Virus record (IMG/VR): IMGVR_UViG_3300032138_000009
Span: 1 to 64,000 of that record
Source: a virus
Lineage: Duplodnaviria; Caudoviricetes
Direction: 5' to 3' (one strand)
Length of the DNA: 64,000 bases
Shown here in pieces: positions 472 to 64,000 of the stretch; within the stretch, counting starts at the first letter, position 1; each line of letters starts with the position of its first letter. The translations under genes were made by a program, and so were the position numbers. The notes beneath the pieces are model-generated. The model saw only the letters and a program-made list of their open reading frames with translations, was not told the DNA's origin and did no database searches.

Positions 472-479
472 GAGTAATC

Positions 480-488: not shown

Positions 489-509
489 GTCCTCGTTCTA
501 AGAAATTAC

Positions 510-2390: not shown

Positions 2391-2397
2391 AAGTAAA

Positions 2398-2427
2398 CTT
2401 TATATAGGTAGAGATTCTACCTGTATA
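2398..2427 (+). promoter_or_regulatory. TATA box with overlapping inverted repeat (AGGTAGA-gat-TCTACCT), possible operator
   Basis: CTTTATATA 2398-2406; arms at 2406-2412 and 2416-2422, extendable to 2401-2427. Confidence 0.6.
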
Positions 2428-2428
2428 T

Positions 2429-2491
2429 GGGCTCTCGCTGAAGGGCCAAGGCTCCACAGGATACTTAACGCAAGTGCCATCGTGGGAGCCC
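2429..2491 (+). ncRNA. Structured 5' leader / small RNA, unclassified
   Basis: GC-rich island starting at the predicted TSS; GGGCTCTC (2429-2436) pairs with GGGAGCCC (2484-2491); internal hairpins. Confidence 0.5.
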
Positions 2492-2507
2492 CAACATGGA
2501 GAAAACT

Positions 2508-2978
2508 ATGTCAAATAACACAACAAACGAAACAAGCAACAACAATACTGCATTGGATACAAATCAGACTGCAAATGATACAAATACAACCAGTAATGTT
2601 ACTGCAAATGATGTAAGCGAATCTGGAATGTTAGATGGTCTAATGGATGCATTACAAGACTCACCCGAGCTTATGCTCGCGGTTGCAGTTATAGGAGCAC
2701 TAGTTGCTTATATTGCATACACTGTACCAGCAGTTAGGATGATGGTTATGCCATATCTTAAGAAATACGATGAAGAAATTCTCGAATTATTAGATAAGAA
2801 CCTAACAGCAGCACAGGTTAAAGCTTACGAGAAGCTGGATGAAGCAGCTCAAAAGCATGTAAAAGATGCAATGCTCAGAAATGTAATAATGTCTGCATAC
2901 GACCAAAACGATGATAAATTCGTAGCCGTCGTTAAGACAGAAGCAAAAGACGCTTTAGCAGAAGCTAAAAAGCTTTGA
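2508..2978 (+). CDS. Single-TM membrane glycoprotein with sequon-rich N-terminus
   Basis: GGAG SD before ATG 2508; 8 N-X-T sequons in first 32 aa; TM LMLAVAVIGALVAYIAYTV; helical C-terminal domain. Confidence 0.7.
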   Translation: MSNNTTNETSNNNTALDTNQTANDTNTTSNVTANDVSESGMLDGLMDALQDSPELMLAVAVIGALVAYIAYTVPAVRMMVMPYLKKYDEEILELLDKNLTAAQVKAYEKLDEAAQKHVKDAMLRNVIMSAYDQNDDKFVAVVKTEAKDALAEAKKL

Positions 2979-3322
2979 ACGAAGTAGAATATGAGCAGCG
3001 GTTACGCCAGCGGGTAGGAGAAGGAGAATATGAACGTCATAAAGAACTTGTACGCTTGCTGGCTCGCAATCTCGCTCTTGAAGATATTTTGTGGGAAGAA
3101 ATTACTATACATATTCGGGACATTAACTTACGAACAGAGCTCTTGCGACAAAGAAATTCAATCGTTCGTGACATACATACGGAATTCAGAGCGTTAAATA
3201 TAGAGATACCTACAGTATTAGAGACTACAACTGAAGGTTTCGCTAGCTTTTTAGAGGATTTAAACGATGACAACACAAGTGAAGAACGAATCGAAGAAAC
3301 TACAAGCAGCACTGACAGGTAA
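2975..3322 (+). CDS. Probable terminase small subunit
   Basis: TTG start coupled by TTGA overlap; helical 115 aa directly upstream of and overlapping TerL. Confidence 0.55.
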   Translation: MNEVEYEQRLRQRVGEGEYERHKELVRLLARNLALEDILWEEITIHIRDINLRTELLRQRNSIVRDIHTEFRALNIEIPTVLETTTEGFASFLEDLNDDNTSEERIEETTSSTDR

Positions 3323-12100: not shown

Positions 12101-15100
12101 ATAGTGGAAAATATCTTACCCTTAGAGATGGTAGTGCAAATCAAGATGTATATCTAAATGCAGAAGGTGCTTCTTATTTTGTTCATAGAGTTGCTTTTGG
12201 AGGTACAGTTCCATTATCAGACATTGGGATAACCGTTTGGCAAGGGATGTCTCTTAAAGAACAAGGCTCTGCTACGGCTGACACTGCTGATTACGGACAA
12301 TTCTGGGTTAAGAATGACACCCCGAACAAACCATACTTCACCGATGACGCTGGTACAGATTTCGATTTAACTGCAACAGGGACTGCGGCTACGCCCGGTG
12401 GTTCTGATACTCAAATTCAATTCAATAATGCAGGTGCCTTTGGTGGAGTATCCGGATTTACCACGACAGACGACGGTTCGGATATAGTTCTAACAAGTGC
12501 TACAGCATCTAAACCAACATTTACTATAACTAATACAAATGCAGATGCTAATTCGTCCTTTTTAATATTTAATAAAAATACCGCAAGTCCTGCGGTTGGA
12601 GACAATCTAGGTTATATTAGATTTGATGGTAAAGATAGTGCAGGAGGTAGTCCTACCTATGCTGATATATTCGCTCAATCTACCAATGTAACAAATCTTT
12701 CTGAAGAAGGAGCTATAAGATTCCGAACTTCTACTGGTGGAAGCATGGCAGACTTAATGATTCTATCAGGAGCTAATGTAGGTATAGGCGTAACTTCACC
12801 CGATGCAAAATTACACATTGATGCACTATCAGAAGGTCAGGGACTTATTGTTGATAGTGATTATTCTACTGGCGACCAAATAAGGGTTCTCAAAGATGGT
12901 TCCACTAGTAAAATGGGGAAGGTAACATTTGATGGAACTAATATGGTTGTGGGTGCTTGGGGTGGAAGTACAGGTATTAGGTTTTGGAATAATGCAGAAG
13001 GAATGCGTCTTACTGGTAGCAACTTAGGTATAGGCACAACTGCACCCGCTCATAGATTAGATGTAGTAGGAACAACTCAACTCTCAGGTAATTCAACTAT
13101 AAGAGGTACACTAGCTATTGAACATACTAATTCTCAAGGTAATCATATCTATACAGACAGTGATGGAAATTTAGTATTGGGTGGCCAAAGTACTGCGGGT
13201 ACTGATGACTATGTTTGGTTAGGTGATGATGATGGTAATGTAGGTATAGGTGTATCTGGTACTTCATATAAACTAGACGTAGTAGGAACGACCCAACTAT
13301 CAGGCAATGCTGTTATAACGGGTACGCTTGGTGTTACAGGTATAGCTACTCTAGCTGATGCTTCTGTTTTAGCTTCGAGCGCTGCTCCAACAGCAGATGC
13401 TCAGATAGCTAATAAGAAATACGTGGACGATAGTATCTCTACAGAAACGCCCGGCGGCTCTGATACTCAAATGCAATATAATAACGGAGGAGCTTTCGGT
13501 GGGGCTTCATCTGTGGTATATGATGATGGTGGTGGACATTTAAAACTAACTGGAACTAGTCAACTACAGTTCAGTGGAAGTAGTCATTATATTTACCAGA
13601 ATGGTGATGATATTAATATTGTGAATAGTGCTGCTAATGGAGAAATACGCTCTGATGCTGAAGTACGTCATCGGTGGTATATAAATGGAAGCCAAATGCT
13701 TCAAGTAGATGATTCAGGAGATATGATTTGGATGAATGCTGGGTCAGAGAAAGGAAGGTTTGATGTCTCTGCTGGTAGGTTAGGCATAGGCACAGCTGCA
13801 CCTAATCATGCACTAGAAGTAGCAGGGACTATCAGAATTGATAATGGAACTACAGATAATGAGTTACAATTCGACGGTGCTGAAACTGTACTAGAACAAT
13901 CAGGAAGTGCTATATTTAAACAGCGTACATGGGATGGAAGCGGTTATTATGTTCCTATACTTTGGACAGGAACAGCTGCTACTCAAAATATAAAATTACA
14001 TGGGGGTATGACAACTTTATCTGGAACCCAGATGGAACAAAGTGGTTCCTTTATATTAACTAATGGAGCAATCACATCAAACCCCGGCACTAACCACTTA
14101 TGGGCATCTGGTTCAACATTATTCTGGGGTGGCGCACAAATTGGTACAACTACGCCCGGTGCTGGAGCTATTCAAGGTACAGCCACAGCAGGAGAAGTTG
14201 CTTATGGTGATGGAAGTAACTCTATTACAAGTACCTCGAATTTTACGTTTACAGATGATAGTGGCATGACTATTACTAGCGCTACAGCTAGCAAACCAGT
14301 TTTAATGCTTAAAAATACAAATGCTGATGCTAATGCAGCAGAATTACAATTCTATAAGAGTACCACAGATGAAGCTGTTAATGATTATGCGGGTAAGTTG
14401 TCTTTCTATTTCGATAATGATGCCGCTCAGAAAACATTAGGGGCTAAGATTTATTCTACTGCTCAATCTGTTACTGATGGTGCAGAAGGTGGGTATCTTT
14501 ATTTTTCAACTATGAAAGCTGGTACAGAAACTATTACCATGACTATGAAATCAGGGAATATTGGCTTTGGAGAGTCATCTCCGGGGTATCAATATTCTTT
14601 CAGTGACCGAGCTACCTCAGACACTAATATTCTGATTGAAGGTAATGATGCAAATTGGTTATGGCAAAATAAAACAGATGGGTCTCTTCTTTGGAAACAA
14701 AACACAGATGGTGTTTCAGCAATGACATTAACATCTGGTGGTAATCTAGGTATAGGCACAACTTCACCTACTGCTGAATTAGATGTAAGGGGTTCAAGTT
14801 CTGCTGGAATGGCAGCCTTTGTTTCAGGTACAGGAAACGGTACCTACCCAGTAATGCATGTAGTAGATTCAGCTGATACCGAAGTTGCTTGGTTTGAAGG
14901 TAATAGGGCAGGAGACACGGGTGCTTATATAGGCGTTAGACACTGGCCCACATCTGCTACTGAGAATGCAAGGTCAGGAATAAAATTCCAAAGTAAAGAC
15001 GATGGTGGAGCACTAACTAATTATGCCACACTACAAATGCGTGTTGATGATTATACTGGTGGTACTGAGGACGGTAAACTTAAAGTCCTTGTTATGGCTG

Positions 15101-17841
15101 ATGGCACTGAAACAGAGTCAGTAAACTTTTCTAAGAATGGAATTATAATAGATGAATATACGCGTCTACAACGTAATACTTCTACTAATGGTTTATATGT
15201 AACAGATTCTGGAGGAAACCCTGTTCCACTTGCTTTGGCTTCAGGTGGAGCACTTCTTTTAGATAATACAACTGCTAATAGAATGTATAGAACATCAGGC
15301 AAGCTCCAGATAGATACTACAGAAACATTAAAGGTTGGTGGAGCTTTAGAAACAACAGGTAAAGCAGTAATCGGGGCTGCAACAATGCCTACTAATAATG
15401 GCATCCGAATCAATGATACTGTAGAGTTGCCTCAACAAGCTGGAGACCCTACTAACGTGGCTAGTGCTGGAATATTTTGGGTTAAAAGTACTTCCCCAAC
15501 CACACCATGGTTTACAGCTAGTGATGGGACAGATACGGATTTGACAGCGGGCGAAGCAAACGTTTTCACTGGAGGAGTTACTGACACATACATCCCTATA
15601 GCTACAGCAACAGACGTGTTGGGTGATTTCTTACCTGCCTATGTGGACTTAACTACAGACAAGAACGTATTTTTAGGAATAGTTCCCGCCAGTCTTACTG
15701 CTTCTGCGGATTACAACACCGCTTTCGGTTATCTTGCTTTGGAAAACCTTACAGATGGTTCTAATAATACAGCACTAGGGATGAATGCTGGTAATGACCT
15801 CACTCAGGGCTATGCCAATGTTTTCGTTGGTTATGGTTCTGGAGGATGGAAAACTACCGAAGCTAGAAACACTGCCGTGGGATATGCAGCGGGCCCTACT
15901 GCTGGTGGAGGAGACAATGTTAATGTAGGGGTATATGCGGGCTATTCGCATACTGGTAATTATTGTGTTATCATAGGTTCTGATGCAGCATATAATACTA
16001 CAGGTGTAGACAGTTCTGTTATCATAGGAAGACAGGCATGGGGGACTGGTGTTGGAACTGGAGATGACAATGTAGTGATAGGTTCTTTAGCAGGGCAAGA
16101 TTTAACAAGCGCTGCACAGACCGTCTTAATAGGTTCTAATGCTGGGTCCAACTTAACAACCGGCACTTACAATACAGTTATGGGATATGATGCTTTAAAA
16201 GCATCAGTGGGAGGTACCTATAATGTAGCCCTCGGATGGATGGCTATGCGCTATCATGCTGAAGCTGCGTCCGGATATAATGTATCTGTGGGCTCTAAGT
16301 CTATGTATAATATTGCTACCGGAACTGCTAATGTAGTTCTGGGTGATTCGGCCATGTATGGTAAAGGGGGTACTCTTAATGAAGCTAATGTTGCTATTGG
16401 TGCATCTGCACTTTACACAGCGTCGGGTACTTCAAACAATGTAGCTGTAGGACATTATTCCATGAACGCCGCTACAACAGGAGTAAAAAATGTAGCAGTA
16501 GGAGCTACAACATTAGATGCTCTAACAACCGCAAGCGGTAATACAGCTGTGGGATATAATGCTTTAACTACTTCTACAACAGCACACGAGAATACAGCTG
16601 TAGGACAAGATGCAGGTAAGGTACTCACTGGACAATACAATGTTATTATGGGTAGTTCAACTGCACCAGCAGCTACTAGTATGAATAATGCGGTGGTTAT
16701 AGGAAGACAAGCTATGGGAGGAGGAGCTGCATCTGGTGATGGCAGCGTTACAATTGGATTTCAAGCTAATTATAGTAATGTATCTACTGAAGGTAATACT
16801 GTTATTATAGGTTATCAAGCAGGTTATACTAATGGTGATGCTACTACTAGCTTAGGTGGTAGAGATAATGTACTTATAGGATATAAGTCAGGATATAATC
16901 TAAGTTATTCTGCACGTAATGTAGCAGTCGGATATAATACATTAACTAATGCAGGTAATAATTCAGAACATAATGTAGCAATAGGATATACAGCATTAGG
17001 AGATGACGCTGGCACACTTGCAGGAGATAGTAATATTGCTATTGGAAGTGCTACGATGTATCGCTTATCTGGAGCTTCGAGTGAAAATATAAGTATAGGG
17101 GGTAGTTTTGCTAAGGATTCTGCTGGAACTGTAGGAGAATATAATATAAGTATTGGTTCGGAAACATTAACGGCTATGGCTGGTGCTTCAGCCTCACGAG
17201 GTAATATAGCTTTTGGTAAACAGACTTTGAACTCATTAACAACAGGTAACTACAATTTAGCCATAGGGAGAGGGGCTTTGACCGATTTAAATCAAGCTAC
17301 AACTAATCTACAATACAATATGGCTATAGGTCCATATGCAGGTCAACATTTACAAACTGGTTCTAACAATGTGTATGTAGGCCCATCTGCTGGACCTTCT
17401 GCTAGTACCTCTGAATCCAACAAACTTTATATTCATAATGCTGCTGGCACTCCACTTATCGGAGGAGACTTCTCGGCGGGCACCGTAACTATAGACGGTA
17501 CACTAAGCGCTACAGCGAAAAGCTTTAATATAGAGCATCCACTATATAAAGACAAGAGATTAGTGCATGGGTCTCTAGAGGGCCCTGAGCATGGTATATA
17601 CATCAGGGGCACTATAGAGGCAAAAGAATATGGTTGCGAAATAGAGCTTCCTGAGTACTGGGATGCTATGTGTGAGGATTACTCAGTACAACTCACGCCT
17701 CATGGACCTTACACTGTCTACATTAAAGAGAAGCAGAAGGATAAAGTCATGATAGCGTGTACAAATAAAGATTATAAATTTGATTATTATGTTGTTGGTT
17801 CAAGGACCGACGAAACATTAGAGGTGGTACAGGATGGTTAA
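9112..17841 (+). CDS. Giant fibre/adhesin protein 1 (2909 aa)
   Basis: Recurrent (V/L)GIGTTxP modules, about 14-aa NTAVG/NVAIG beta-roll repeats, C-terminal KSFNIEHP...EGPE domain; exact start uncertain. Confidence 0.85.
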   Translation: MRRLALPNTNTRIPGTWRSDATGAFPRLSTHGSVIGGNVRGAPVELTAGTSGYALVADDTTESGLAWASFAGSNYYVSSIAFNTSTGVLTLGRSGLGDLTQDLDGRYSTLSSPLTTKGDIWVYGSANTRLPVGTDSYALVADSSTATGLNWAANSDANYYTTSASLSAGTLTGVIAGGGSNWTADISAVATGSITSSTQYYNTFYNAATGLVGSSRLQTDGSNNIILSGASNIAKTAADFQSTLGVSGTLTVSGATNIIDTLNVTGNTIIEGTSLLSGNTTITGSLAGTTSANFGTTLTATGATTMLGGGTASGNLYVKTGSRNQMHMDPTLEAAKMVIRDSGGTADISEFMYYPRLSLEQDATDPTGPAANAGYPSIYFLKYGPSGVSSPVGGDPVGWRQVASGAAGASTAPQYMVWEYSTDMDGANFSEKLKLKNDGTLTTTTFAGALLGTIDSTTTATTQSASDNSTKVATTAYADAAAAGGGGTIGGSITDNQVAFGASTANSIEGSASFTWDGANFNITGSSPKIIVDGGGSDDASIELRESSQYGGRMYYDGDSGTFMKFTTIDGGTEKIRIAYDRYGAVFLGSAPTVDASSTPTMYLTSGGDVGIGTEAPSKKLDVRGGATFSGSIYASGSDLGGYISRTDTNEMAIYAGDGTKGIHLAPSINYLTAPSTRWQVQSDFRVNSTKQLQFGDDEHYIYSDGTDLILKTVTTATNGIILDAKVDTTFKIDGTTKMTLDADGQLGIGTTTPSFPLHLYGAATQEARIQSTDSGAYSRLQLKSHDAGYGQLLFGDSAADGAGALNYTHSSDTLDISAANAVQLSITDNLITLGDGVVLAPHSSDNFTIDSPNGIVLDGTSATNGVQYHDGGTELLRIQNSSSNPIIRTMQDSKDLIFQQFDATEVMRITDNARVGIGTTAPNAKLEILSTTEQLRLSYDGSYESKFTVDSAGVMTWTSDSTHFYKPGNGLNYFNGGSGENRLYVFDNNDSAYATYSGKYLTLRDGSANQDVYLNAEGASYFVHRVAFGGTVPLSDIGITVWQGMSLKEQGSATADTADYGQFWVKNDTPNKPYFTDDAGTDFDLTATGTAATPGGSDTQIQFNNAGAFGGVSGFTTTDDGSDIVLTSATASKPTFTITNTNADANSSFLIFNKNTASPAVGDNLGYIRFDGKDSAGGSPTYADIFAQSTNVTNLSEEGAIRFRTSTGGSMADLMILSGANVGIGVTSPDAKLHIDALSEGQGLIVDSDYSTGDQIRVLKDGSTSKMGKVTFDGTNMVVGAWGGSTGIRFWNNAEGMRLTGSNLGIGTTAPAHRLDVVGTTQLSGNSTIRGTLAIEHTNSQGNHIYTDSDGNLVLGGQSTAGTDDYVWLGDDDGNVGIGVSGTSYKLDVVGTTQLSGNAVITGTLGVTGIATLADASVLASSAAPTADAQIANKKYVDDSISTETPGGSDTQMQYNNGGAFGGASSVVYDDGGGHLKLTGTSQLQFSGSSHYIYQNGDDINIVNSAANGEIRSDAEVRHRWYINGSQMLQVDDSGDMIWMNAGSEKGRFDVSAGRLGIGTAAPNHALEVAGTIRIDNGTTDNELQFDGAETVLEQSGSAIFKQRTWDGSGYYVPILWTGTAATQNIKLHGGMTTLSGTQMEQSGSFILTNGAITSNPGTNHLWASGSTLFWGGAQIGTTTPGAGAIQGTATAGEVAYGDGSNSITSTSNFTFTDDSGMTITSATASKPVLMLKNTNADANAAELQFYKSTTDEAVNDYAGKLSFYFDNDAAQKTLGAKIYSTAQSVTDGAEGGYLYFSTMKAGTETITMTMKSGNIGFGESSPGYQYSFSDRATSDTNILIEGNDANWLWQNKTDGSLLWKQNTDGVSAMTLTSGGNLGIGTTSPTAELDVRGSSSAGMAAFVSGTGNGTYPVMHVVDSADTEVAWFEGNRAGDTGAYIGVRHWPTSATENARSGIKFQSKDDGGALTNYATLQMRVDDYTGGTEDGKLKVLVMADGTETESVNFSKNGIIIDEYTRLQRNTSTNGLYVTDSGGNPVPLALASGGALLLDNTTANRMYRTSGKLQIDTTETLKVGGALETTGKAVIGAATMPTNNGIRINDTVELPQQAGDPTNVASAGIFWVKSTSPTTPWFTASDGTDTDLTAGEANVFTGGVTDTYIPIATATDVLGDFLPAYVDLTTDKNVFLGIVPASLTASADYNTAFGYLALENLTDGSNNTALGMNAGNDLTQGYANVFVGYGSGGWKTTEARNTAVGYAAGPTAGGGDNVNVGVYAGYSHTGNYCVIIGSDAAYNTTGVDSSVIIGRQAWGTGVGTGDDNVVIGSLAGQDLTSAAQTVLIGSNAGSNLTTGTYNTVMGYDALKASVGGTYNVALGWMAMRYHAEAASGYNVSVGSKSMYNIATGTANVVLGDSAMYGKGGTLNEANVAIGASALYTASGTSNNVAVGHYSMNAATTGVKNVAVGATTLDALTTASGNTAVGYNALTTSTTAHENTAVGQDAGKVLTGQYNVIMGSSTAPAATSMNNAVVIGRQAMGGGAASGDGSVTIGFQANYSNVSTEGNTVIIGYQAGYTNGDATTSLGGRDNVLIGYKSGYNLSYSARNVAVGYNTLTNAGNNSEHNVAIGYTALGDDAGTLAGDSNIAIGSATMYRLSGASSENISIGGSFAKDSAGTVGEYNISIGSETLTAMAGASASRGNIAFGKQTLNSLTTGNYNLAIGRGALTDLNQATTNLQYNMAIGPYAGQHLQTGSNNVYVGPSAGPSASTSESNKLYIHNAAGTPLIGGDFSAGTVTIDGTLSATAKSFNIEHPLYKDKRLVHGSLEGPEHGIYIRGTIEAKEYGCEIELPEYWDAMCEDYSVQLTPHGPYTVYIKEKQKDKVMIACTNKDYKFDYYVVGSRTDETLEVVQDG

Positions 17842-20800
17842 TGTAACAATCACCCCATTAAGTGGTTCGCTTGCTTTAGATGGAAGTATAGGTACGAAGC
17901 CTACTCCATCTGCAACTACTATAGGATATGTATGGGCTTCGGGAACAAATAATGCTGGCCTTTGGTATACTGATGGAGCTGGAACAACTGCACAACTTAA
18001 TGCCGCAGCAGGAGGAGGAGATATAGGTGGTACAGTCTCCGATAACTATATTCCCATTGCTGATGGTGATGATACTCTTGCCAACTTTACTCCTGCATAT
18101 GTAGAAGGGTATAATATTATTATAGGTAGAACTGCACAAAACACAACCACAGATGCAGACGACAATACAATGCTAGGTCACAACGCAGGTTATGCATTAA
18201 CAACTGGAGATAGGAATGTTTTTATAGGTAGAAATGCAGGAGACCAAACAACCACTGCTAATAGTAATGTAGCTATAGGAAGATATGCTATGGGTGGTGC
18301 AGGAGCTACTGTAGCATATTCCGTTGCTATAGGTACTCAAGCTAATAATTCGATAGGAGGTACTTCGACTGGTGTAGGACATATGTCTAATTATGCAGCA
18401 GGTCAACATAAGACTGCTGTTGGATATCAAGCTAATTTATATCCATCTGGAAATGATAATACAGCTGTAGGTCATCAGGCCCTTCTTGGTGCATCTGCTG
18501 GAACTGTCTCGGCTTATAGTAATGTAGCAATCGGTAAACAAAGTATGGCATCAGCTACTACAGCACATAGCAATGTGGTTGTAGGTAATCTAGCGGGTTA
18601 TACTCTTACAACAGGATATTACAATACTTATATAGGTAAGGACGCAGGAAGTGGTGCCACTACAAGTGCTCACAGTAATGTGGCTGTAGGATTTGATGCA
18701 TTATCCTCGAATCATGGTGCAGGAAATGTAGCTATAGGTAGAGGAGCTTTACGTACTACTACAGATGCTAATCAGGTTGCTATAGGATATAGTTCTTTAG
18801 CATCTAATACAGCTGGAGAAAAGAACACGGCTGTTGGATATGATACACTTACAACAAACACCACAGGTAATTATAATACTGCTATGGGACATCAAGCGCT
18901 CGCATTAAACGTTCATGGTGATTATAATACAGCGTTTGGATATAAGGCTTTATTAGCAGCAGCCACTGCTGATGGCACTGGTGGTAATACTGCTATAGGT
19001 GGCTATATGACTTTAGGAAGTGTAACAGCAGGTATTCGTAATAATGCGATGGGTCATTCTGCTGGACACACACTAACTACAGGTAACTATAATGATTTTA
19101 TAGGCTACCAAGCAGCCTATTCTAATGTACATGGAGATTATAATGTAGCTATAGGAAGAGCTGCTTTATATTATAATACACCTGCTGATGGAGCAGGAAG
19201 AAACGTAGCAATAGGTTCTTGGGCTTCTTATGGTCCCGGCACGACTTTTGCGATGACTGGTACTACAGCTATAGGTTATGCTGCTGGATATTGGACTTCG
19301 GGTAACGCTAATGTTTGGATAGGAGAAGGAGCTGGTTATGGTGGTGAAGCTGTTGGTAATACATCTACTCAATCTGTATCTATAGGTGCTGAATCTTCTA
19401 AAGCTATAACTACTGCTAATAATCACGTAGCCGTAGGATATGCCGCAGCTAATGATATCACGACTGGGGCTGATGGAGTTTATATAGGAAAAACAGCTGG
19501 ACAAAAATTAACAACCCAGAATTATAATGTTGTTATAGGGGCAGATGCAATGAATGCAGCTACAGGAGTTTCTGATTCAGTTGTTATAGGTAGACAAGCT
19601 ATGGGTGGAGCTGCTGCTACAGGAGATGACAATGTTATAATGGGATATAGAGCAGCTTATGATTTAACTACTGGATATAGTAATGTAATAATGGGTCATT
19701 CTTCTGCTGAAAATATAACAGAAGGGCATAAAAATATTATTGCTGGACATTCAGCAGGTGGTGCAATAACTACTGCTCATAGTAATGTAGCCATAGGATA
19801 TCAAGCTTTAGACTCAACCACAGTAGGTTCAGAAAACGTAGCAATAGGTGCTTACGCTGGACAAGCTTTGGTTGGAACAACTAGTAGTGTTTATGGAGGT
19901 TTTAGTGTTTTTGTTGGACATACAGCAGGATATCAAATGACAGGTAATGTCAGCTATGGTGGTAACACAATGGTAGGACATGCTGCTGGTTATAGTGCTA
20001 CTGGAGCTGATAGGTCCACAGGTATTGGTGCTTCAGCTATGTATTATGCTGATGGTGCAAAATATAATACAGCTGTTGGAAGAGTAGCTGGAGCTTATGC
20101 AAAAGGAACAGGTAGTACTCATGTAGGAGATTCCTCTGGATATAGAGTTAGTGGTAATTATAATACTTCTGTTGGTTATGAAGCTTTATCAGGTGCTTCG
20201 TCAGGAACAGGTTATGGAACAGCAAAAGAGAATGTAGCTATAGGAAGGCAAGCACTAGCGAGTGTAACTTCAGCCAACAGAAATACAGTAGCAGGATATA
20301 CAGCAGGTTTCTCTATGACAGATGGTCATAACAACAATATATTTGGTTATCAAGCAGGTTACGCTATAACAACTGGCTTCGGTAACGTTCTAAGTGGATA
20401 CCAGACAGGTAAAGCTTTAACTGATGGAGTATACAACACCATGACTGGAGTTCAGGCTGGTTTATATGAAACAGGTGATTATAACGTAATGATGGGACAT
20501 CGCGCTGGAGAAGGAGGTTCGGGAGACCCTGATACTCTACGCAGTGTTTTTATCGGATATCTTTCAGGATATAGACAATCAGGAGCTAGTTATAACGTAG
20601 CTGTAGGAACTTATTCCGCAGCAGGTGCTGACTTCTCTGGTGGGTCTAATGTTATGATGGGATATTCAGCAGGGCAGAACGCCACTACAGCTAATGCAAA
20701 CGTATTTTTAGGATATTATGCAGGTTCTAGTGGAACTACAGCACAACATAATGTAGTCATAGGAAATCAAGCAGGTCAAGAATTAACTACAGGTACACAA

Positions 20801-23602
20801 AACGCATTTGTAGGAAGTAATTCAGGTAGATATATAACCATAGGCCATAATAACATAGGAATGGGATACGGTGCACTTAATGCACTTGTAGAAGGAGACA
20901 AGAATATAGCAATTGGTTCCTTTGCTGCAAATGCTACAGTATCCGCAGATGGTGTGGGAAACAACATAGCTATAGGTTATCAAGCTATGACTACAAATAC
21001 CACAGGTGTAGATAACGTAGTAATAGGTGGTAATGCCTTAGATTCCAACACTGGTGGTAAAAATGTTATTATTGGTACAAATGCAGCTCAAGGTGCAACT
21101 ACTATGGACGCTTCAACGATTATAGGTCATCAAGCAGCAGGTGGTGGCGCCCCAACAGGAGATTATAATACGATTGTTGGATATCAAGCTGGATATGCAT
21201 TAAATGGTGCAGTAGAAGCCAATGTGTTCTTGGGACATAGAGCTGGTTATACTAATACTACTGGAGGTAGTAATACATACATAGGTTATACTGCTGGACA
21301 TTCAGCTACTATAGGAGAAAAGAACGTAGCTATAGGACATAGTGCATTATATACTAATGTTGATGGAGATAAAAATATAGCTATAGGTTGGCAAGCTCTG
21401 TATTCACTGGAACCAGCAGGAGATGCAGGTGAAAATACTGCTGTGGGTCATCAAGCAGGTCGTTCTGTAACTACAGGAACAGGTAACGTATTTTTAGGAC
21501 ACAAGGCTGGTTATAACACAGACCACGACACTGAATCCAACAAATTAGTTATAGCTAATTCAAATACTACAACTCCATTAATTGATGGAGACTTCTCAAG
21601 TGCTTCTGTCACTATAAACGGTAACTTATCTTCTCATCATCTATCACCAGTAGCAGATGATACATATACCTTAGGAACTCCTGCCAAACAATGGCAAGAG
21701 TTGCATATAAGTGATATAATATATAATAAAGGTTATATTCACATGGCTGATAGCACAGGTTTAGCAGGTACAAATCGAATATATGCTTCTGGTGCTAACT
21801 TATACTGGAACACTTCAAAATTAAATGACCAATCTTCTACAGCAGTGGAAACAGGTACCGTTTGGGAAGGACCAAGCAGTACTACTTATCCATTAGCTTT
21901 CGTAGAGGACCAAGGAGGTAGATTACTAAGAACTGAAAGTGCTGCTAACTTCCCAGCTTATCTTTCCTATAATACTACAACTGCTTTAATGACTGTACGT
22001 AATACATCTTTCTATACAATGAAATTAGGAGGTAGTGCTGCAATGGGTTCTATCGTTACAGGAGGAGACACTTCAAATTCAGATACAGCTTTAGCTACTA
22101 GTAGTTTCGTTATGGATAATGCAGGAAGTACCAGTCCGGGTGGTTCTGATACTCAAATTCAATTCAATAATGGGGGTGCCTTTGGTGGTGTAAGTGGATT
22201 TACTACAACTGATGATGGTTCTGACGTTACCTTAACAAGCGCTACAGCTAGTAAACCTGTATTTACAATAGAAAACACTAACGCAGATAATACTCCACCG
22301 GGATTAACATTTTATAAAAATACAGCAAGCCCAGCTTCTGGAGACCAAGCAGGTAGTATAAAGTTTGACAGTGAAGAAGCAACAAGCGGCGATAGAAAAA
22401 CATACTGGGAAATACAATCTCGTATTAATGACCCTACTAACACAACACCTAACGGTCAATTAAATTTCTATGGACTTGATGGGGACAGTCCCGGTTTTAT
22501 TCATCAGTTCCAATTTATAAACAGTCAATTCTCTGTTCTTGATAGCAATGGAGTAGGACCAACAATGTCTTGTACTGGAACAAATGGTGGACAATTTAAA
22601 ACAGCTGGTTCAAAGATGAGGCTACAAGCCAAGTCAGATTCTACTGGTGAAATCCACATGATGGCTAATTATGTAGGTATTAACACAACTTCACCTACTA
22701 ACCTGTTATGTGTATCAGGTAATGCTAGCCCAATGAGATTATATGGAACTAGTACTGGTAAAGTAGAGTTCGATGTATCTACTTCTGGAGACTTCACTAT
22801 AGATTCTGATGATGATATAAGATTAGATGCAGGTGGTCAAGATATAGTATTAAAGGGTGCTGGTAGTGAATTTGGTAGATTAACCAACAGTTCTCAAGAT
22901 TTTATTATACAGAACACTCAGAATGATAAAGATATAATATTTAAAACTGTAGATAATACTTCCACAACAACTGTAATGACTATTGATGGTTCTGAATCAA
23001 GAGTAGGCATAGGCACAACTGCACCTAACAATACTTTAGAAGTAGCTGGGGTTATTCGTGGTACCAATTATATATGGCAAAAACAAGATGGTACACCCGG
23101 AGTATTGTTTGGGAATGGTGGAGATGCAGATATTTACTATGATGGCACTAATATGATTTTTAACGCAGCTCGTGTTGGTAGTGGTAAAGAATCACACATA
23201 ACTACTGTACATGCTAGTGGAGCTTCGTTTCAAAAAGACTTAGGAGAATCTTTATTTATACGTGCAATTCATGGTGGTTTTGACCAAAATGCAATCTTAG
23301 CAGCAGCACCTAATATTCAATATGTAGCACCAGCTGGTCCAAGTGCTCCCGGTACCTCCGCCATTCCAACCGAACTACCACTTGCTGAAGCTGGTAATGA
23401 AGGTTTAGAAATAACAGTTATGCAAACATGGGCAGCGGACCCTACGGCGGCCTTACAGGTCCAAGCATCAACTGGTAGTCCGGATGTTATTTATGAAGGG
23501 GGAAGTAATACTGCCTCAGCAAATGTATCAGTAGCTGCTTATCGAGGAGCAAATAAAACTTTCATTCAGGTTGCGGAGGCTATTTGGGTGGTGAAAGGAT
23601 GA
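17834..23602 (+). CDS. Giant fibre/adhesin protein 2 (1922 aa)
   Basis: Long NxAIG/NTAVG beta-roll region (about 18100-21550) and modules shared with fibre 1. Confidence 0.85.
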   Translation: MVNVTITPLSGSLALDGSIGTKPTPSATTIGYVWASGTNNAGLWYTDGAGTTAQLNAAAGGGDIGGTVSDNYIPIADGDDTLANFTPAYVEGYNIIIGRTAQNTTTDADDNTMLGHNAGYALTTGDRNVFIGRNAGDQTTTANSNVAIGRYAMGGAGATVAYSVAIGTQANNSIGGTSTGVGHMSNYAAGQHKTAVGYQANLYPSGNDNTAVGHQALLGASAGTVSAYSNVAIGKQSMASATTAHSNVVVGNLAGYTLTTGYYNTYIGKDAGSGATTSAHSNVAVGFDALSSNHGAGNVAIGRGALRTTTDANQVAIGYSSLASNTAGEKNTAVGYDTLTTNTTGNYNTAMGHQALALNVHGDYNTAFGYKALLAAATADGTGGNTAIGGYMTLGSVTAGIRNNAMGHSAGHTLTTGNYNDFIGYQAAYSNVHGDYNVAIGRAALYYNTPADGAGRNVAIGSWASYGPGTTFAMTGTTAIGYAAGYWTSGNANVWIGEGAGYGGEAVGNTSTQSVSIGAESSKAITTANNHVAVGYAAANDITTGADGVYIGKTAGQKLTTQNYNVVIGADAMNAATGVSDSVVIGRQAMGGAAATGDDNVIMGYRAAYDLTTGYSNVIMGHSSAENITEGHKNIIAGHSAGGAITTAHSNVAIGYQALDSTTVGSENVAIGAYAGQALVGTTSSVYGGFSVFVGHTAGYQMTGNVSYGGNTMVGHAAGYSATGADRSTGIGASAMYYADGAKYNTAVGRVAGAYAKGTGSTHVGDSSGYRVSGNYNTSVGYEALSGASSGTGYGTAKENVAIGRQALASVTSANRNTVAGYTAGFSMTDGHNNNIFGYQAGYAITTGFGNVLSGYQTGKALTDGVYNTMTGVQAGLYETGDYNVMMGHRAGEGGSGDPDTLRSVFIGYLSGYRQSGASYNVAVGTYSAAGADFSGGSNVMMGYSAGQNATTANANVFLGYYAGSSGTTAQHNVVIGNQAGQELTTGTQNAFVGSNSGRYITIGHNNIGMGYGALNALVEGDKNIAIGSFAANATVSADGVGNNIAIGYQAMTTNTTGVDNVVIGGNALDSNTGGKNVIIGTNAAQGATTMDASTIIGHQAAGGGAPTGDYNTIVGYQAGYALNGAVEANVFLGHRAGYTNTTGGSNTYIGYTAGHSATIGEKNVAIGHSALYTNVDGDKNIAIGWQALYSLEPAGDAGENTAVGHQAGRSVTTGTGNVFLGHKAGYNTDHDTESNKLVIANSNTTTPLIDGDFSSASVTINGNLSSHHLSPVADDTYTLGTPAKQWQELHISDIIYNKGYIHMADSTGLAGTNRIYASGANLYWNTSKLNDQSSTAVETGTVWEGPSSTTYPLAFVEDQGGRLLRTESAANFPAYLSYNTTTALMTVRNTSFYTMKLGGSAAMGSIVTGGDTSNSDTALATSSFVMDNAGSTSPGGSDTQIQFNNGGAFGGVSGFTTTDDGSDVTLTSATASKPVFTIENTNADNTPPGLTFYKNTASPASGDQAGSIKFDSEEATSGDRKTYWEIQSRINDPTNTTPNGQLNFYGLDGDSPGFIHQFQFINSQFSVLDSNGVGPTMSCTGTNGGQFKTAGSKMRLQAKSDSTGEIHMMANYVGINTTSPTNLLCVSGNASPMRLYGTSTGKVEFDVSTSGDFTIDSDDDIRLDAGGQDIVLKGAGSEFGRLTNSSQDFIIQNTQNDKDIIFKTVDNTSTTTVMTIDGSESRVGIGTTAPNNTLEVAGVIRGTNYIWQKQDGTPGVLFGNGGDADIYYDGTNMIFNAARVGSGKESHITTVHASGASFQKDLGESLFIRAIHGGFDQNAILAAAPNIQYVAPAGPSAPGTSAIPTELPLAEAGNEGLEITVMQTWAADPTAALQVQASTGSPDVIYEGGSNTASANVSVAAYRGANKTFIQVAEAIWVVKG

Positions 23603-54597: not shown

Positions 54598-54907
54598 TTC
54601 TATATAATTCAGCTTCTTCTGGAGTCATTCTATTAAATAGTTTATCCATATTATTAGTCATTAGTTCTGAAATTTTAATGTCATATACATCACATAAGCG
54701 TTGTAGATACCATAAGACATCTCCGAGCTCATCTATAATAAGGTCAGTATTGTCTACTCTATCTCTTATTTCTTTCTTATATGCTCCACCAACTTCACCA
54801 GCTTCATTCATCAAACCTATCATTAGGTATTCTTTCTCTCTACGTTTAGGATACTTCGCTGTTCTGCGAGTAAAATCCTTATATGTTTCTTCTATTCCTT
54901 TTACCAT
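54587..54907 (-). CDS. mazG: MazG-like NTP pyrophosphohydrolase
   Basis: GLMNEAGEV...DELGDVLWY motifs. Confidence 0.9.
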   Translation of the reverse strand: MVKGIEETYKDFTRRTAKYPKRREKEYLMIGLMNEAGEVGGAYKKEIRDRVDNTDLIIDELGDVLWYLQRLCDVYDIKISELMTNNMDKLFNRMTPEEAELYRNEN

Positions 54908-55221
54908 ATGTTTATCTCCTCTGGTATTCTTTTATTTCTTATCATCCACATTCTCTGAGCAGGTAAGTATCTATATACTAAATCTGCCTTCTTATCTGAT
55001 TGTATAACCCAAGGTTTTACTATCACTAAGTCATTCATACGAACCCACATACGTTTCTTTAGTCTGCCGGGTATACGTATCATTCTTGTTAGACCATCTT
55101 CACAAAGAGCTATAAGTCTAGAACCTCCTGACATTTCTTTTACTACCCCAAGTAGTTCATTATGTCTAGGTATTCTAGCTCTCTTTATAATGGGACTTGA
55201 TTCTTTCGATTTCTTCTTCAT
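54901..55221 (-). CDS. eif1a: Archaeal translation initiation factor 1A
   Basis: RIP...ELLGVV...CEDG..R..RIPGRLKKRMWVR..DLVIVKPW...KADLVYRY matches aIF-1A; GGAG SD before ATG 55221. Confidence 0.9.
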   Translation of the reverse strand: MKKKSKESSPIIKRARIPRHNELLGVVKEMSGGSRLIALCEDGLTRMIRIPGRLKKRMWVRMNDLVIVKPWVIQSDKKADLVYRYLPAQRMWMIRNKRIPEEINIW

Positions 55222-56647
55222 TATAGTCTCCTTCTGCGTGCAGTAAGAACTCTTCAAAACTTTTTATCCTTGAGTCTTTATATGTCTTAAAGGGTTCATA
55301 TGCATCTGTCTCTATATCTATCGCTGTCTTTGCTCTCTCACCCAGCTTAATGTCGTCGCCAGTAAACGGGTCAACAATTTTGATATCGCTACAAAAGCGC
55401 CCCCCGTATTCCACAGCCACGGCAGGCCAGTTTTTTGCCATAAAGTCTTTTGTTTCTTCAATTAATTCACTCCAATTTATTTTTGCTACAGGTTCCTCAA
55501 AGAGAGGACTCTTGTAATATAATTTCTTACCCTTATCTTCATCCATTTCTAGGAATCCAGTCATAAGTAGGGCTCCTAATATGGGTTCTATCTTAGTGAA
55601 AGGTAAGCCAGCAGCCTTAGCTGCTTTCTTTATCTCATTAGTAGACATACGAATAGTGTCGCCATCTGCAAACCCAAACCTATCTATCCTAGTGTTAGGA
55701 AATAATTTCAGTATGTCAGTACCATGACTAGGCATATGGAGACATTCAGACACAAAGGAATTAAGATAGATGCGTAAACCTAACCAATTATGTTTGGGGG
55801 TTACTAAACCATATTGGGTTCCATCTTTCTCTACCCTAAGTATCTCGTCAGGATAAAACCTAGCCACAGCGTTTATAAGTTTCAATAGATATTGCACTTT
55901 AGACCTAGATACAGGAAAAGCACTAGGTATAGCTTCAAATAAGAAAGGCGCACATGGATTTTTTATATGTAGTGCGTCTTCATCATCTCTCTCTATAACA
56001 GCCTTAAGCACATGTTCTTTTAACTTCTCTATCTCTTCATCAGACATAGTTGTTAGTTTAGTTTTAGGAACTGCACTATCCATTAGTTTATGCTTAAGCA
56101 CTCTTTCAGTCTGCTCTACAGTAGGATTAGTATGCATTATCATACACCTTCTTTCTAATTCCGCATCGAAATAGGCTGCTCCTTTAGTATTCTCTACAGC
56201 TACACACATAAATACATACTTAGCGTATATCTGTGTTTCTACAGTATCCCCTATAGTTACATCAGTTCGCTTTCTAAATGCACTCCTTCCATCACCCCAT
56301 GTTTTAACTACTTCTATTACTGCTTCTGGTAGTTTCTGAGCTTCAGGTATAGCTATAAATCTAGCTCTGTTTATCTTCTCAGCATCATACCATACCGCAG
56401 TTTCGGAAAGATGTTCCAATACATAGTAAAACTCTTCGGGCAACAAAGAAAAAATAGCATCCATAATAACAGTCTTTCCTGTTCCTGAGTAAGCCTTTAT
56501 AACAAAGTTATTATCCTCTAAGAGATAGGAAAGGCATGAACTAAGGGCTAGTTCATCCTCTCCTAATATAGGATTTAAAGTGCCATCTTCTTTTCTAACA
56601 TTATGAAAATATCTAGTTAAGTCATACAACTCAAACTTTTTTGGCAT
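55175..56647 (-). CDS. MCM-like AAA+ ATPase/helicase lacking N-terminal domain
   Basis: Walker A AYSGTGKT, atypical Walker B IAIPE, Arg finger LERR, C-terminal winged-helix-like segment. Confidence 0.6.
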   Translation of the reverse strand: MPKKFELYDLTRYFHNVRKEDGTLNPILGEDELALSSCLSYLLEDNNFVIKAYSGTGKTVIMDAIFSLLPEEFYYVLEHLSETAVWYDAEKINRARFIAIPEAQKLPEAVIEVVKTWGDGRSAFRKRTDVTIGDTVETQIYAKYVFMCVAVENTKGAAYFDAELERRCMIMHTNPTVEQTERVLKHKLMDSAVPKTKLTTMSDEEIEKLKEHVLKAVIERDDEDALHIKNPCAPFLFEAIPSAFPVSRSKVQYLLKLINAVARFYPDEILRVEKDGTQYGLVTPKHNWLGLRIYLNSFVSECLHMPSHGTDILKLFPNTRIDRFGFADGDTIRMSTNEIKKAAKAAGLPFTKIEPILGALLMTGFLEMDEDKGKKLYYKSPLFEEPVAKINWSELIEETKDFMAKNWPAVAVEYGGRFCSDIKIVDPFTGDDIKLGERAKTAIDIETDAYEPFKTYKDSRIKSFEEFLLHAEGDYNEEEIERIKSHYKES

Positions 56648-61923: not shown

Positions 61924-62750
61924 CTATATTCCTCTGGAAATTGCTCAAAGGTGCATTCTTCAGGAGTCTTATCATATCTCCACATCTTAAACTTAGGATG
62001 CCTTATACTTCCTGAAGGATACCACCCATTACCTTTAGCAGTAAAGACTGTGCCTATCTGTGCTTCGGGTTTCTCAGTAAATAACTTACGTTGAGTATCA
62101 GTTAGACCCCCACATGTCACATATACTTCTTTGTCAGCTAACGTTCCTATAACTGCACCAACCTGTCCTTCATATTTAGTTCCTTTATCAGCAGGTCTGA
62201 AACCCACACAAGTATAATCTACTTCTACTACTGTTTTCATTCTAGCCCAAGCATTCTTATCACTATAAAAACTACTACTATTCTTAAAGACTAGACCTTC
62301 ATACCCTTCATCCATAACATACCTATTCCATGCAATTTTCCATTTAGGTGTTCTCCATGTTTTCAAAGGATATACAAATCCAAAATTATTTTCTCGTAAT
62401 ACATGTCTATCTAAAGTATTTAATCTCTCAGCTAAAGGTTCTTCTGTTAAATCCTGTCCTTTATATTTCACACAGTCAAAGGCATAGAAGTGTCCATCAC
62501 AGTCATGTCTATGCGCCCAATGACTATTCTTCATAAACTCACCAAGTATCATAGTCTCATCTTTCTCATATGTGTCCAGATGTCCTGATGCCTTTAGTTT
62601 CCCTGTTCGAGAATATATATTCCATTCTCCGTAAGACATAACCATACATCCCCACATACCATCCATCTTTAACTGAACTATGTCATACTCTTCAGGTATA
62701 GTCATACCGTCATAGTATCTCAACTCTTTAAACTTTGGCCTATCCATCAT
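61920..62750 (-). CDS. lig: Minimal ATP-dependent DNA ligase
   Basis: KMDG adenylation motif, LGEF, YAFD, YEGLVFK, ARMK, OB fold with SIRHPKF. Confidence 0.9.
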   Translation of the reverse strand: MMDRPKFKELRYYDGMTIPEEYDIVQLKMDGMWGCMVMSYGEWNIYSRTGKLKASGHLDTYEKDETMILGEFMKNSHWAHRHDCDGHFYAFDCVKYKGQDLTEEPLAERLNTLDRHVLRENNFGFVYPLKTWRTPKWKIAWNRYVMDEGYEGLVFKNSSSFYSDKNAWARMKTVVEVDYTCVGFRPADKGTKYEGQVGAVIGTLADKEVYVTCGGLTDTQRKLFTEKPEAQIGTVFTAKGNGWYPSGSIRHPKFKMWRYDKTPEECTFEQFPEEYR

Positions 62751-62926
62751 AGTTGGTCACGCATATAATCCCTAACCATCTTTATACTATCTCTTAAAGA
62801 TTCATTATCCGTAATCTCAGCTACTTCAAAATCTAAATCAGCTATAAACATAGACATTACTCTCGGTGTCATATAGTCCTTGAGTATTTTTAATATGTGT
62901 AATGCTTCTGTCCTACTTGTTACCAT
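62747..62926 (-). CDS. 59-aa hypothetical protein
   Basis: MVTSRTEALHILKILKDYMTPRVMS...; ATGA coupled to ligase. Confidence 0.5.
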   Translation of the reverse strand: MVTSRTEALHILKILKDYMTPRVMSMFIADLDFEVAEITDNESLRDSIKMVRDYMRDQL

Positions 62927-63001
62927 AGTTTCTCGGTCTCAATATCATCTTTTTCTTGCTACGCCCTAAGCGTTTATCCATCCATACTAATAGTTCTCTT
63001 A

Positions 63002-63181
63002 TCATTCTTCTTCCTCGTCTAAATCAGGTTTCCATATACCATTATCCACTATACCTTTAAGCCATTCATCTTGATATCTCAGTGGCATTTGATAATGTAT
63101 TATCTCGGCTATCGTGCTGATAGCGAATTTCAGTGCTTCTATCTCTTCGTTCTTTATCTTTTGATACTCTTGTATTTTCAT
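63002..63181 (-). CDS. Hypothetical protein
   Basis: GGAG SD before ATG 63181; downstream of TATA 63215-63223. Confidence 0.55.
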   Translation of the reverse strand: MKIQEYQKIKNEEIEALKFAISTIAEIIHYQMPLRYQDEWLKGIVDNGIWKPDLDEEEE

Positions 63182-63214
63182 TTTTGTTTCTCCTAATATC
63201 ATAATATTTCATTT

Positions 63215-63223
63215 TATTTAAAG
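63215..63223 (-). promoter_or_regulatory. TATA box (CTTTAAATA)
   Basis: Same motif as 23609 and 60449. Confidence 0.6.
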
Positions 63224-63239
63224 GTTGTGGTAGAGAGAG

Positions 63240-63774
63240 ATATAACCCAAAACAAAACTAAGAGATGTTCTCACATCAACACATCTATATACTTATCTTA
63301 ACTACCGCTTAGGCTGTTGTGCAGGGGTATATGTGCTATCAGTATACCACAGCCATCCTTGTTTATCACTCGCAATGAGCTTACTCCTTGATGCTTGAAA
63401 GGTATACCTGCGTTCTCGGTCTAAGTAAAGATGTGTGTTCTCATAACTGTGAACGTATATCTTTATCTCCTCACCAGCAGAACGCTTTGATAGGTCTCGC
63501 TTGACGTAAAGGTAGACGCATAATGATTAGCTAATCTCCTTTACTTGGTTCTCTTATAGGTATCACCATATTGATACCATACCTATCTCATAGTGTTTAG
63601 TCCTACTCATCCTACTTATAGATAGAGGTAGGGGTGGCCTTGTGTTATCACTATGTATATCTCAGTGGCTTCTGGGCGTATGATTCAAGTCTCTACCACT
63701 TTAGTGGGATAGAAGCGGAAAAAGGAGGTAAAATATGAGCCAACAAAAAAATGTTGTATTCCACTTCTATCCTA
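63240..63774. ncRNA. Hairpin-rich non-coding region (candidate structured RNA or origin)
   Basis: About 530 nt with no convincing long gene; at least six stems, several with G-U pairs on the + strand. Confidence 0.4.
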
Positions 63775-63996
63775 TCACTGTGTTTTGAGTTTATCGTATG
63801 CTATTCCCATAGCATCTTGTATTTGTTTCTGTGTTCTTATACGGCCATCAGAAGTATATAGGTTCAGTCCGTTATCAGATATAACTTCGTTAATCTCTTC
63901 AGCAGACCATTTCTTATCTCCATACTTCTCATGACATATAGCCTTGATGAGTTTCATGCGAGGCTTCCCTAACTTTCCTATTACATTCATGCCCAT
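63775..63996 (-). CDS. Hypothetical protein, may start beyond the window edge
   Basis: 73-aa ORF at window end. Confidence 0.5.
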   Translation of the reverse strand: MGMNVIGKLGKPRMKLIKAICHEKYGDKKWSAEEINEVISDNGLNLYTSDGRIRTQKQIQDAMGIAYDKLKTQ

Positions 63997-64000
63997 ATAA

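Follow-up and report, generated by a model that had tools for sequence, protein, structure and literature searches.

A conserved structured RNA in the replication-gene block of marine viruses that appear to infect archaea

RESULTS

Genome layout and probable host of the virus

The window analyzed here is the first 64 kb (64,000 nt) of an 81,208-bp virus record from IMG/VR. Its plus-strand half (1 to 44.6 kb) encodes the terminase, portal, major capsid, and tape-measure proteins as well as giant structural proteins, and a minus-strand block (45 to 71 kb) encodes ribonucleotide reductase, a family B DNA polymerase, MazG, HSP20, a RecU-like resolvase, an ATP-dependent ligase, MoxR/CobS-like and VWA/CobT-like proteins, and a minimal PolX. 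Two giant proteins (2,909 aa, 9112-17841, and 1,922 aa, 17834-23602, both on the plus strand) contain many repeats of virion-structural or tail-spike-like domains, matching phrog_6002 and phrog_4636 over 5 to 13 stretches. The end of the record (77219-81208) is a diverged copy of its start (1-3589), with identities of 84% over 1-1450, 94% over 1649-1997, and 79% over 2386-3589. Rather than an exact terminal repeat, the pattern suggests that a circular or terminally redundant genome of ~77.2 kb was put together from two related strains.

Within the replication block, the minus-strand ORF 54901-55257 encodes the archaeal initiation factor aIF-1A, scoring 109.3 bits against a curated NCBIfam cutoff of 91. 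The viral protein is 35 to 50% identical to cellular copies, equally so in two archaeal phyla, and it therefore does not resolve the host phylum. A TerL search returned only relatives at 23% identity or less, and no close cultured phage was found by it. The presence of aIF-1A, the BRE/TATA-like boxes described below, the lack of a close cultured phage, and the CobS and CobT genes, which have been reported from magroviruses and from other tailed viruses of archaea (PMC10160649, PMC8651126), suggest that this is an uncultured marine tailed virus of archaea and that its group appears to infect archaea. The family B DNA polymerase was counted toward the same archaeal setting.

A long noncoding gap in the replication-gene block

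A sequence-only reading of the window had singled out a stretch of about 530 nt near its right end as the only long gap in a tightly packed genome, and proposed either a large structured RNA or a replication origin. The gap is as described: 63203-63774 holds no ORF of at least 40 aa and is the longest such interval of the record, the runner-up measuring 317 nt. Since the family alignment places the true start of the downstream gene at ATG 63181, the noncoding stretch amounts to ~593 nt. All six frames are closed by multiple TAA, TAG, and TGA stops, and a protein-coding gene, standard or recoded, was rejected because stops of all three kinds occur in every frame.

At the downstream edge, outside the RNA fold described below, lies a box, AACCTTTAAATA (63215..63226, minus strand), which we read as a putative archaeal TATA box (TTTAWATA). 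It belongs to a recurrent element, aaCCTTTA(A/T)ATA, found 25 to 50 nt upstream of gene starts, with copies at genome positions 63224, 71034, 73344, and 75470 on the minus strand and 71680 and 76423 on the plus strand, and weaker copies at 58268, 60458, and 68119. We take this element to fit the archaeal TATA consensus, TTTAWATA, with a purine-rich BRE. In the early region, the boxes are preceded by TTATAT and TATATACCCCCTCGA-like boxes. The recurrent boxes are probably archaeal BRE/TATA promoters that delimit transcription units, and the one at 63215..63226 would probably be the promoter of the next unit (small protein, ligase, RecU-like resolvase). The first gene of that unit, encoding a small protein beginning MKIQEY, has its SD sequence AGGAG at 63194-63190 and its start at ATG 63181 (63169..63194, minus strand), a start conserved in the relatives. 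The small proteins next to the gap correspond to 63002-63202 and 62747-62926. The AT-rich box had been proposed to drive an RNA divergently on the plus strand; it matches the genome's BRE/TATA-like boxes, which face their downstream minus-strand genes, and because these recurrent boxes point toward the minus-strand genes, we do not regard it as a divergent plus-strand promoter. A sigma-70 promoter and an intrinsic terminator were dropped from consideration as irrelevant to an archaeal host.

The element recurs at the same place in marine virus contigs

Related loci were gathered from IMG/VR, ENA, and JGI marine contigs by an alignment-based CobT search, which succeeded where a single-protein CobT search of IMG/VR gave no match, and by identical-protein look-ups. 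The CobT-like protein has hundreds of marine relatives, and the same element lies in the same place and orientation in more than 60 marine virus contigs whose neighboring CobT-like protein is only 47 to 80% identical. Two loci, L155 and L179, come closer, with a CobT 97% identical to that of the window. Scanning marine metagenomes with the pattern of the 5' hairpin (H1, see below) gave 62 further loci. In all loci, the element is single-copy and co-oriented with the genes. Its length ranges from ~230 to 700 nt (~552 nt in the window), the 46 distinct copies fall into two subfamilies, and blocks of it are 92 to 96% identical, in the same orientation, in relatives whose CobT is only ~50% identical.

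Wherever the flanks allow a judgment, the context is CobS-CobT upstream and a 59-aa protein (p59), the ligase, and the RecU-like resolvase downstream. A homolog of the small MKIQEY protein adjoins the element in 37 of 62 loci, and in about 9 of these 37 it lies upstream. Some loci are rearranged (L125, L175, L183, L184, and L185): the ATP-dependent ligase has moved upstream of CobS, the small MKIQEY-type gene lies upstream instead of downstream, and the element still sits between the CobT side and the p59/RecU side. The ORF preceding the element also varies, being a small membrane protein with a ..WMWM.. motif, a 90-aa protein, or CobT with a short ORF, and it stops at differing distances from H1. 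In most subfamily A relatives, this ORF encodes ~46 to 52 aa with a hydrophobic stretch ending in ..WMWM.. and lies directly before H1 (for example, 5198-5350 in L049 and 2040-2180 in L008); the window has the different, 90-aa ORF there.

Other searches yielded no further members. Querying a phage collection at the DNA level, either with the gap or with a 25-kb part of the window, gave no match; a 15-mer scan of IMG/VR gave mostly chance matches; and a loose-pattern scan of a collection of cellular genomes gave at least 120 matches, all by chance, with no true member among the matches listed. Among 401 sampled Nitrososphaerota genomes searched with the DNA, none showed the element, and the only match was one of 25 nt to its AT-rich tail.

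A 5' hairpin and a three-segment closing stem supported by covariation

We aligned the 46 distinct full-length copies with MAFFT on sequence only (alignment A3) and defined the helices on the window sequence. As controls, the 3' partner of each helix was slid by 1 to 3 columns, and columns were shuffled 300 times, a procedure that ignores phylogeny. Over 41 tested pairs, 94.3% of cells are canonical, compared with 40 to 51% with slid partners (A3, n = 46), and compensatory double changes occur in 20 of the 41 pairs versus 4 to 9 in the slid controls. Taking the four helical elements (H1, Pa, Pb, and Pc) one by one, all 300 column shuffles, which ignore phylogeny, fell below the real alignment in both percentage paired and covariation score. 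RNAalifold, applied to eight close relatives, recovered H1, Pa, Pb, and Pc independently, along with ~10 interior hairpins, with 93.7% of cells canonical.

The 5' hairpin H1 (63704..63778, minus strand) is an inverted repeat that begins on the stop codon of the upstream ORF. It consists of an outer GUG/CAC stem (63778-63776 with 63706-63704), a 3-nt AUA bulge (63775-63773), and a 14-bp stem (63772-63759 with 63720-63707; inverted repeat I5), which the sequence-only reading had correctly located at 63707-63772. An apical mini-hairpin, CAAC-U7-GUUG (63741..63756, minus strand), carries a U-rich loop; a T-rich run of 3 to 8 T between short complementary arms is found at this apex in nearly all relatives. 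In 45 to 46 distinct relatives, 99.7% of H1 cells are paired; among the compensatory changes, two positions switch from A-U to G-C, and another example is a position with five pair types. In distant members, the otherwise invariant GGAUAG/CUAUCC becomes GGACAU/GUGUCC or GGGUAU/AUAUCC, again in a compensatory manner.

The remaining conserved helices join the 5' region to the 3' end. The outermost, Pa, pairs GUGGUAGAGA (63690..63699, minus strand) with UCUCUACCAC (63227-63236), a perfect 10-bp match in the window (I9) whose arms are ~450 nt apart. Double changes affect 7 of its 10 pairs, for instance GUGG/CCAC to UUGG/CCAA and UUGG/CCGA, and GUGGUAGAG/CUCUACCAC to GUCGUAUAG/CUAUACGAC and to GUGGUGAAG/CUUCACCAC. 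The 9-bp stem once proposed to close two hairpins at 63627-63697 gives way to this helix: its pairing is not conserved, and 63690-63699 pairs with 63227-63236 instead. Inside Pa, an internal loop has CUUGAAUCAUAC (63678..63689, minus strand), nearly invariant in subfamily A, facing UAUAUCUC (63237-63244). The segment formed by UAUAUCUC and the Pa 3' strand (63227..63244, minus strand) is the 3' end of the structured RNA and its most conserved block, being one of those with 92 to 96% identity in relatives with a CobT-like protein ~50% identical. Pb follows, with GCCCAGAA (63670..63677, minus strand) pairing with 63245-63252; its central pair covaries, being A-U in 12, U-A in 11, and C-G in 2 sequences. 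On the 3' side, the alignment places a U-rich tract, UUUUG, and then the Pb strand UUUUGGGU within 63245..63257 (minus strand), a region in which AGUUUUGUUUNGGG is nearly invariant in the family. The innermost helix, Pc, pairs CUGAGA (63660..63665) with UCUUAG (63258..63263), both on the minus strand; 5 of its 6 pairs show double changes, a count reached by none of the 300 shuffles. The two internal loops of the closing stem measure 12 by 8 and 4 by 5 nt.

Enclosed by Pc is a variable interior of hairpin modules (63264..63659, minus strand; alignments and RNAalifold). It ranges from ~100 to ~550 nt among relatives, with modules gained, lost, and moved; a protein-coding interior was rejected on this length variation and on indels whose lengths are not divisible by three. 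Among the recurrent modules are AGAGAACCAAG, GUCAAGCGA, GGUGAGGAGAUAUAG, and AAGGAGUAAGCUC..GAGUGAUAAACAAGG. Two perfect palindromes that had drawn the attention of the sequence-only reading, AGGTATACCT (63400) and GATTAGCTAATC (63525), are present in the window but are not palindromic in the relatives, and a kissing-loop role was dropped since they are not conserved. A tertiary contact of the H1 loop with the interior GGUGAGGAG module was likewise rejected, the module being missing from short members, as were a K-turn at the internal loops and a hammerhead at the CUGAUGA modules, whose sequences do not fit and for which Rfam has no match.

Conservation and covariation across the 46 distinct copies thus bear out the first of the two original proposals, a large structured RNA, and we consider it very probable, judging from comparative data, that the gap encodes a real, conserved one. 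Its predicted fold is well supported: H1, followed by a closing stem in three segments (Pa-Pb-Pc) that would join the 5' region to the 3' end, hold sequence-invariant internal loops, and enclose the variable hairpin modules.

An origin with iterons is not supported

The second proposal, an origin with iterons, found no such footing. The gap contains only two-copy direct repeats of 9 to 12 nt, and the GC skew shows no inflection at 63.5 kb. Cumulative skew peaks at ~44.5 kb and reaches its minimum at 71-75 kb, and the skew is negative on both sides of the gap, although skew follows gene orientation in this genome, which weakens it as a test for an origin. No AT-rich unwinding stretch occurs in the gap beyond the 12-bp TATA-like box with its leader. 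An element acting as duplex DNA, whether an origin or a protein-binding region with cruciforms or iterons, would account for the genome's longest gap, for its many inverted repeats, and for its highly conserved blocks. It is hard to reconcile with compensatory changes between strands 200 to 650 nt apart, and the asymmetry of G·U pairs between the strands (see below), the lack of repeated binding sites, and the absence of a skew signal at the gap also speak against it; we regard it as highly improbable.

A transcript that primes replication deserves somewhat more credit, while still appearing unlikely. Such an RNA would start DNA synthesis as a persistent hybrid or a structured primer, in the manner of ColE1 RNA II or of transcript-primed phage origins. 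The RNA indeed lies inside the replication block, with PolX, the ligase, and the RecU-like gene at hand and PolB further on, and beside a promoter, and its size is near that of RNA II (~550 nt). On the other hand, the skew extremes lie elsewhere (44.5 and 71-75 kb), iterons and an unwinding stretch are lacking, and the closing stem ties the two ends of the RNA together, a poor fit for a primer, which needs its 3' part to hybridize to DNA. The likeness to ColE1 RNA II and transcript-primed phage origins extends to a structured transcript of ~550 nt, replication functions, and a nearby promoter, whereas the RNA described here differs in having its ends paired together, in showing no origin signals, and in having no evident RNA I-like antisense partner.

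The H1 loop is antisense to an ideal translation start

The 3' side of the internal loop of H1, GCUCAU-AUUUU-ACCUCC (63724..63740, minus strand), is single-stranded in the fold and is the exact antisense of an ideal SD sequence plus AUG, the plus strand reading GGAGGU-AAAAU-AUGAGC over the same positions. CUCAU and ACCUC are conserved in both subfamilies, separated by a spacer of 2 to 10 nt, and the reverse complement of the loop is an idealized copy of the virus's own consensus start region. Pairing of the loop with viral start regions averages -9.6 kcal/mol, compared with -7.8 ± 0.5 kcal/mol for shuffled loops. No single viral mRNA stood out as its target, and no full complement of the loop was found elsewhere in the genome; the idea of a specific viral mRNA target was dropped. 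An antisense of its own consensus start region would bring the virus no obvious benefit. Since the loop is the antisense of an SD plus AUG and resembles the anti-SD end of 16S rRNA, it may point to an action on translation-initiation regions, and it would be the sole hint of function that the sequence offers.

The minus strand is the likely functional strand

The conserved helices hold ~128 cells that are G·U on the minus strand, against ~35 A·C cells that would be G·U on the plus strand, and at single positions of H1, U·G or G·U occurs on the minus strand in 33, 23, and 12 sequences. The RNAalifold energy is better for the sense (minus) strand in four of five subgroups and for the antisense strand in one. 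Whole-sequence energies show a weak preference, the sense strand being more stable in 29 of 46 members (mean, -2.2 kcal/mol), and the folding z-scores of the gap RNA relative to shuffled sequence are -5.24 for the minus strand and -2.50 for the plus strand. The sequence-only reading had argued from a G-U bias for an RNA on the plus strand, antisense to the genes. The bias is real for one interior hairpin, that at 63427-63464 (present as 63426-63443/63448-63465), in which three A·C mismatches on the sense strand become G·U on the plus strand, but this hairpin is not conserved, and in the conserved helices it is the minus strand that holds the G·U pairs. It is common only to the closest relatives (L133 and L148), other modules replacing it elsewhere. 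The G·U asymmetry and RNAalifold speak against the proposed strand.

On these grounds, together with the lack of a TATA-like box within 110 nt upstream of H1 in the 46 members and the orientation of the boxes, the functional strand is likely the minus strand, the sense of the flanking genes, a call that is moderately well supported. We hold with the same confidence the joint statement that the minus strand would be functional and the RNA transcribed with the upstream genes.

An antisense RNA on the plus strand, possibly ending in a mini-ORF after the perfect SD at 63724-63738, has to be weighed against this. A 17-codon ORF (63736-63789, plus strand) does lie behind the perfect GGAGGT SD in the H1 loop, antisense to the operon, and its SD and ATG are conserved in the family. 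Its length in relatives runs from 2 to more than 25 codons, and it enters the conserved arm in all three frames (frame 0 in 19 members, the others in 8 and 10); as length, frame, and sequence all vary, a conserved small peptide was rejected. The plus-strand reading could further draw on the three G·U pairs of the 63427-63464 hairpin, on the one subgroup with a better antisense energy, and on the AT-rich box being nearly palindromic, which might permit bidirectional use. It would leave C·A mismatches in H1, Pb, and Pc in most members, the BRE-like side of the box faces the minus-strand genes as in the genome's other boxes, and the folding z-score is the weaker of the two (only -2.5 versus -5.2). 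Together with a mini-ORF of no fixed length or frame, this makes a plus-strand RNA quite improbable.

Predicted limits of the transcript

Taken on the minus strand, the RNA would have no promoter of its own and would be the last element of the unit carrying the minimal PolX and the cobS- and cobT-like genes. Its end would directly precede the BRE/TATA-like box from which the next unit (small proteins, ATP-dependent ligase, and RecU-like resolvase) would be read. A riboswitch or 5' leader was rejected: in most members the promoter box separates the RNA from the next gene, which, with the ability of the small gene to sit upstream, makes a leader of the downstream gene unlikely.

The same boundaries invite another explanation, that the RNA is the 3' untranslated end of the cobS/cobT unit, acting in cis only, as a site for 3'-end formation or protection, for processing, or for insulation from the following promoter. 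It runs from the stop codon of the last gene to the next BRE/TATA-like box and lacks its own promoter; its position and orientation are fixed in all loci, and conserved U-rich tracts occur in the H1 loop and before the Pb 3' strand. The U-rich run in the H1 loop could also cause archaeal termination before most of the RNA is made, which, like the lack of a terminator after the RNA, counts against the transcript proposed above. Against a cis-acting boundary element, a scan found no terminator-like site after the RNA, the neighboring small gene occurs on either side of it, and four members have no box downstream, the Pa 3' strand running directly into the SD and ATG of the next gene. Moreover, a length of 230 to 700 nt, invariant internal loops, and a modular interior far exceed the known needs of 3'-end formation or processing, and would make it unusually large and ornate for such a purpose. 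We consider this explanation possible and rather unlikely.

No match to known RNA families

The Infernal comparison suggested by the sequence-only reading did not place the RNA in a known family, neither in the window nor in 35 related loci. At the gathering threshold, the 4,227 covariance models of Rfam 15 gave no match in the 64-kb window or in 19 related loci; at E values up to 1, there was none in 16 related loci, and at E values up to 10, the region 63000-64000 gave only chance-level hits (E of at least 0.8). The models covered include GOLLD, ROOL, HEARO, OLE, RNase P, SRP, 6S, Y RNA, riboswitches, ribozymes, and group I and II introns. ARAGORN found no tRNA or tmRNA gene in the window.

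A group I or II intron was rejected on several counts. There is no split gene, and the small gene downstream comes with an SD and a start of its own and, in many members, a separate promoter box; the ORFs on either side are complete genes that bear no relation to each other from member to member, which excludes an intron; and no Rfam intron model matches a catalytic core (P3-P8 with the G-binding P7, or domain V). Such introns are also not known to have a closing stem of ~24 bp joining both ends, as predicted here. A bulge-helix-bulge (BHB) or circular-RNA stem of the archaeal kind, in which a 4-bp helix separates two 3-nt bulges on opposite strands, was rejected as well, since inspection of H1 and Pa-Pc showed only one 3-nt bulge (AUA, 63775-63773) and no second; a relaxed motif of the type that some archaeal endonucleases cleave is possible.

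DISCUSSION

The best explanation that we can offer, one to which we give about an even chance, is a minus-strand structured noncoding RNA of ~552 nt (63778 to 63227) that would form the 3' end of the cobS/cobT unit. As far as comparison of the loci can tell, this predicted RNA has a constant place among the replication genes of an uncultured marine virus group with apparently archaeal hosts. Rather than serving as a DNA site, it would act as a folded particle, probably joined by protein partners and possibly trimmed out of the operon transcript. That it acts as a stand-alone or trans-acting RNA is, in our judgment, about as likely as not.

One functional surface of such a particle would be the H1 loop, CUCAU-N(2-10)-ACCUCC, through which the RNA would most plausibly act on translation-initiation regions or on a factor recognizing them. 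We advance an action on translation initiation tentatively, and with clearly less confidence than the existence or the strand of the RNA. A bolder proposal, no more certain, is that this is the first class of large structured noncoding RNA confined to tailed viruses of marine archaea, magrovirus-like or related ones, and that it reprograms or buffers translation initiation. Under that proposal, a stable RNA particle would expose a loop copying the anti-Shine-Dalgarno end of 16S rRNA together with an anti-start codon, and would serve as a decoy or sponge, its targets being start regions or else a factor or defense enzyme that recognizes the anti-SD, in a virus that also carries aIF-1A.

A loop of this kind resembles that of the base-pairing small RNAs of bacteria and archaea that mask the SD sequence and start codon, inasmuch as the exposed CUCAU...ACCUCC complements an SD plus AUG. 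The RNA described here is nevertheless 5 to 10 times larger than those RNAs, its complementarity is to a generic consensus and not to one target, and the spacer between the halves of its loop varies from 2 to 10 nt among relatives.

GOLLD and ROOL are large "ornate" noncoding RNAs of phages and bacteria, catalogued as Rfam families, whose function is not known. They share with the present RNA a length of several hundred nucleotides, many hairpins, frequent carriage by viruses, conservation with covariation, and no obvious cis-regulatory role. The present RNA differs in having no Rfam match in sequence or structure and in its apparently archaeal host. Whereas GOLLD and ROOL lie near tRNAs, it lies in an operon between replication genes, and its architecture centers on a closing stem in three parts around a modular interior.

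In full-text searches of the literature, no paper turned up on large structured RNAs of archaeal viruses, nor any described family with this architecture, context, or host. The best reading is that the family, which is not catalogued in Rfam, appears to be a new class of large structured RNA. A set of 8,495 unnamed structured-RNA candidates has been mined from IMG/VR (Fremin and Kyrpides 2023, PMC10690425); these come from the same data source and are the same kind of object, and part of the element may be among them.

The family is well suited to structural work, as it offers more than 46 distinct sequences, two subfamilies, natural minimal versions of ~230 to 280 nt, and clear covariation, a richness that makes chemical probing, cryo-EM, and the design of minimal constructs feasible. 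H1 together with Pa provides a sequence marker for spotting this virus group in metagenomes. Large, intricately folded RNAs are rare, and each of the earlier known examples has proved to be either a ribozyme or a ribonucleoprotein scaffold or to embody a new regulatory principle. The fixed place of this RNA in the replication module and a loop mirroring the viral ribosome-binding site give concrete, testable hypotheses, and, if the hosts are truly archaea, those archaea would be among the most abundant of the ocean.
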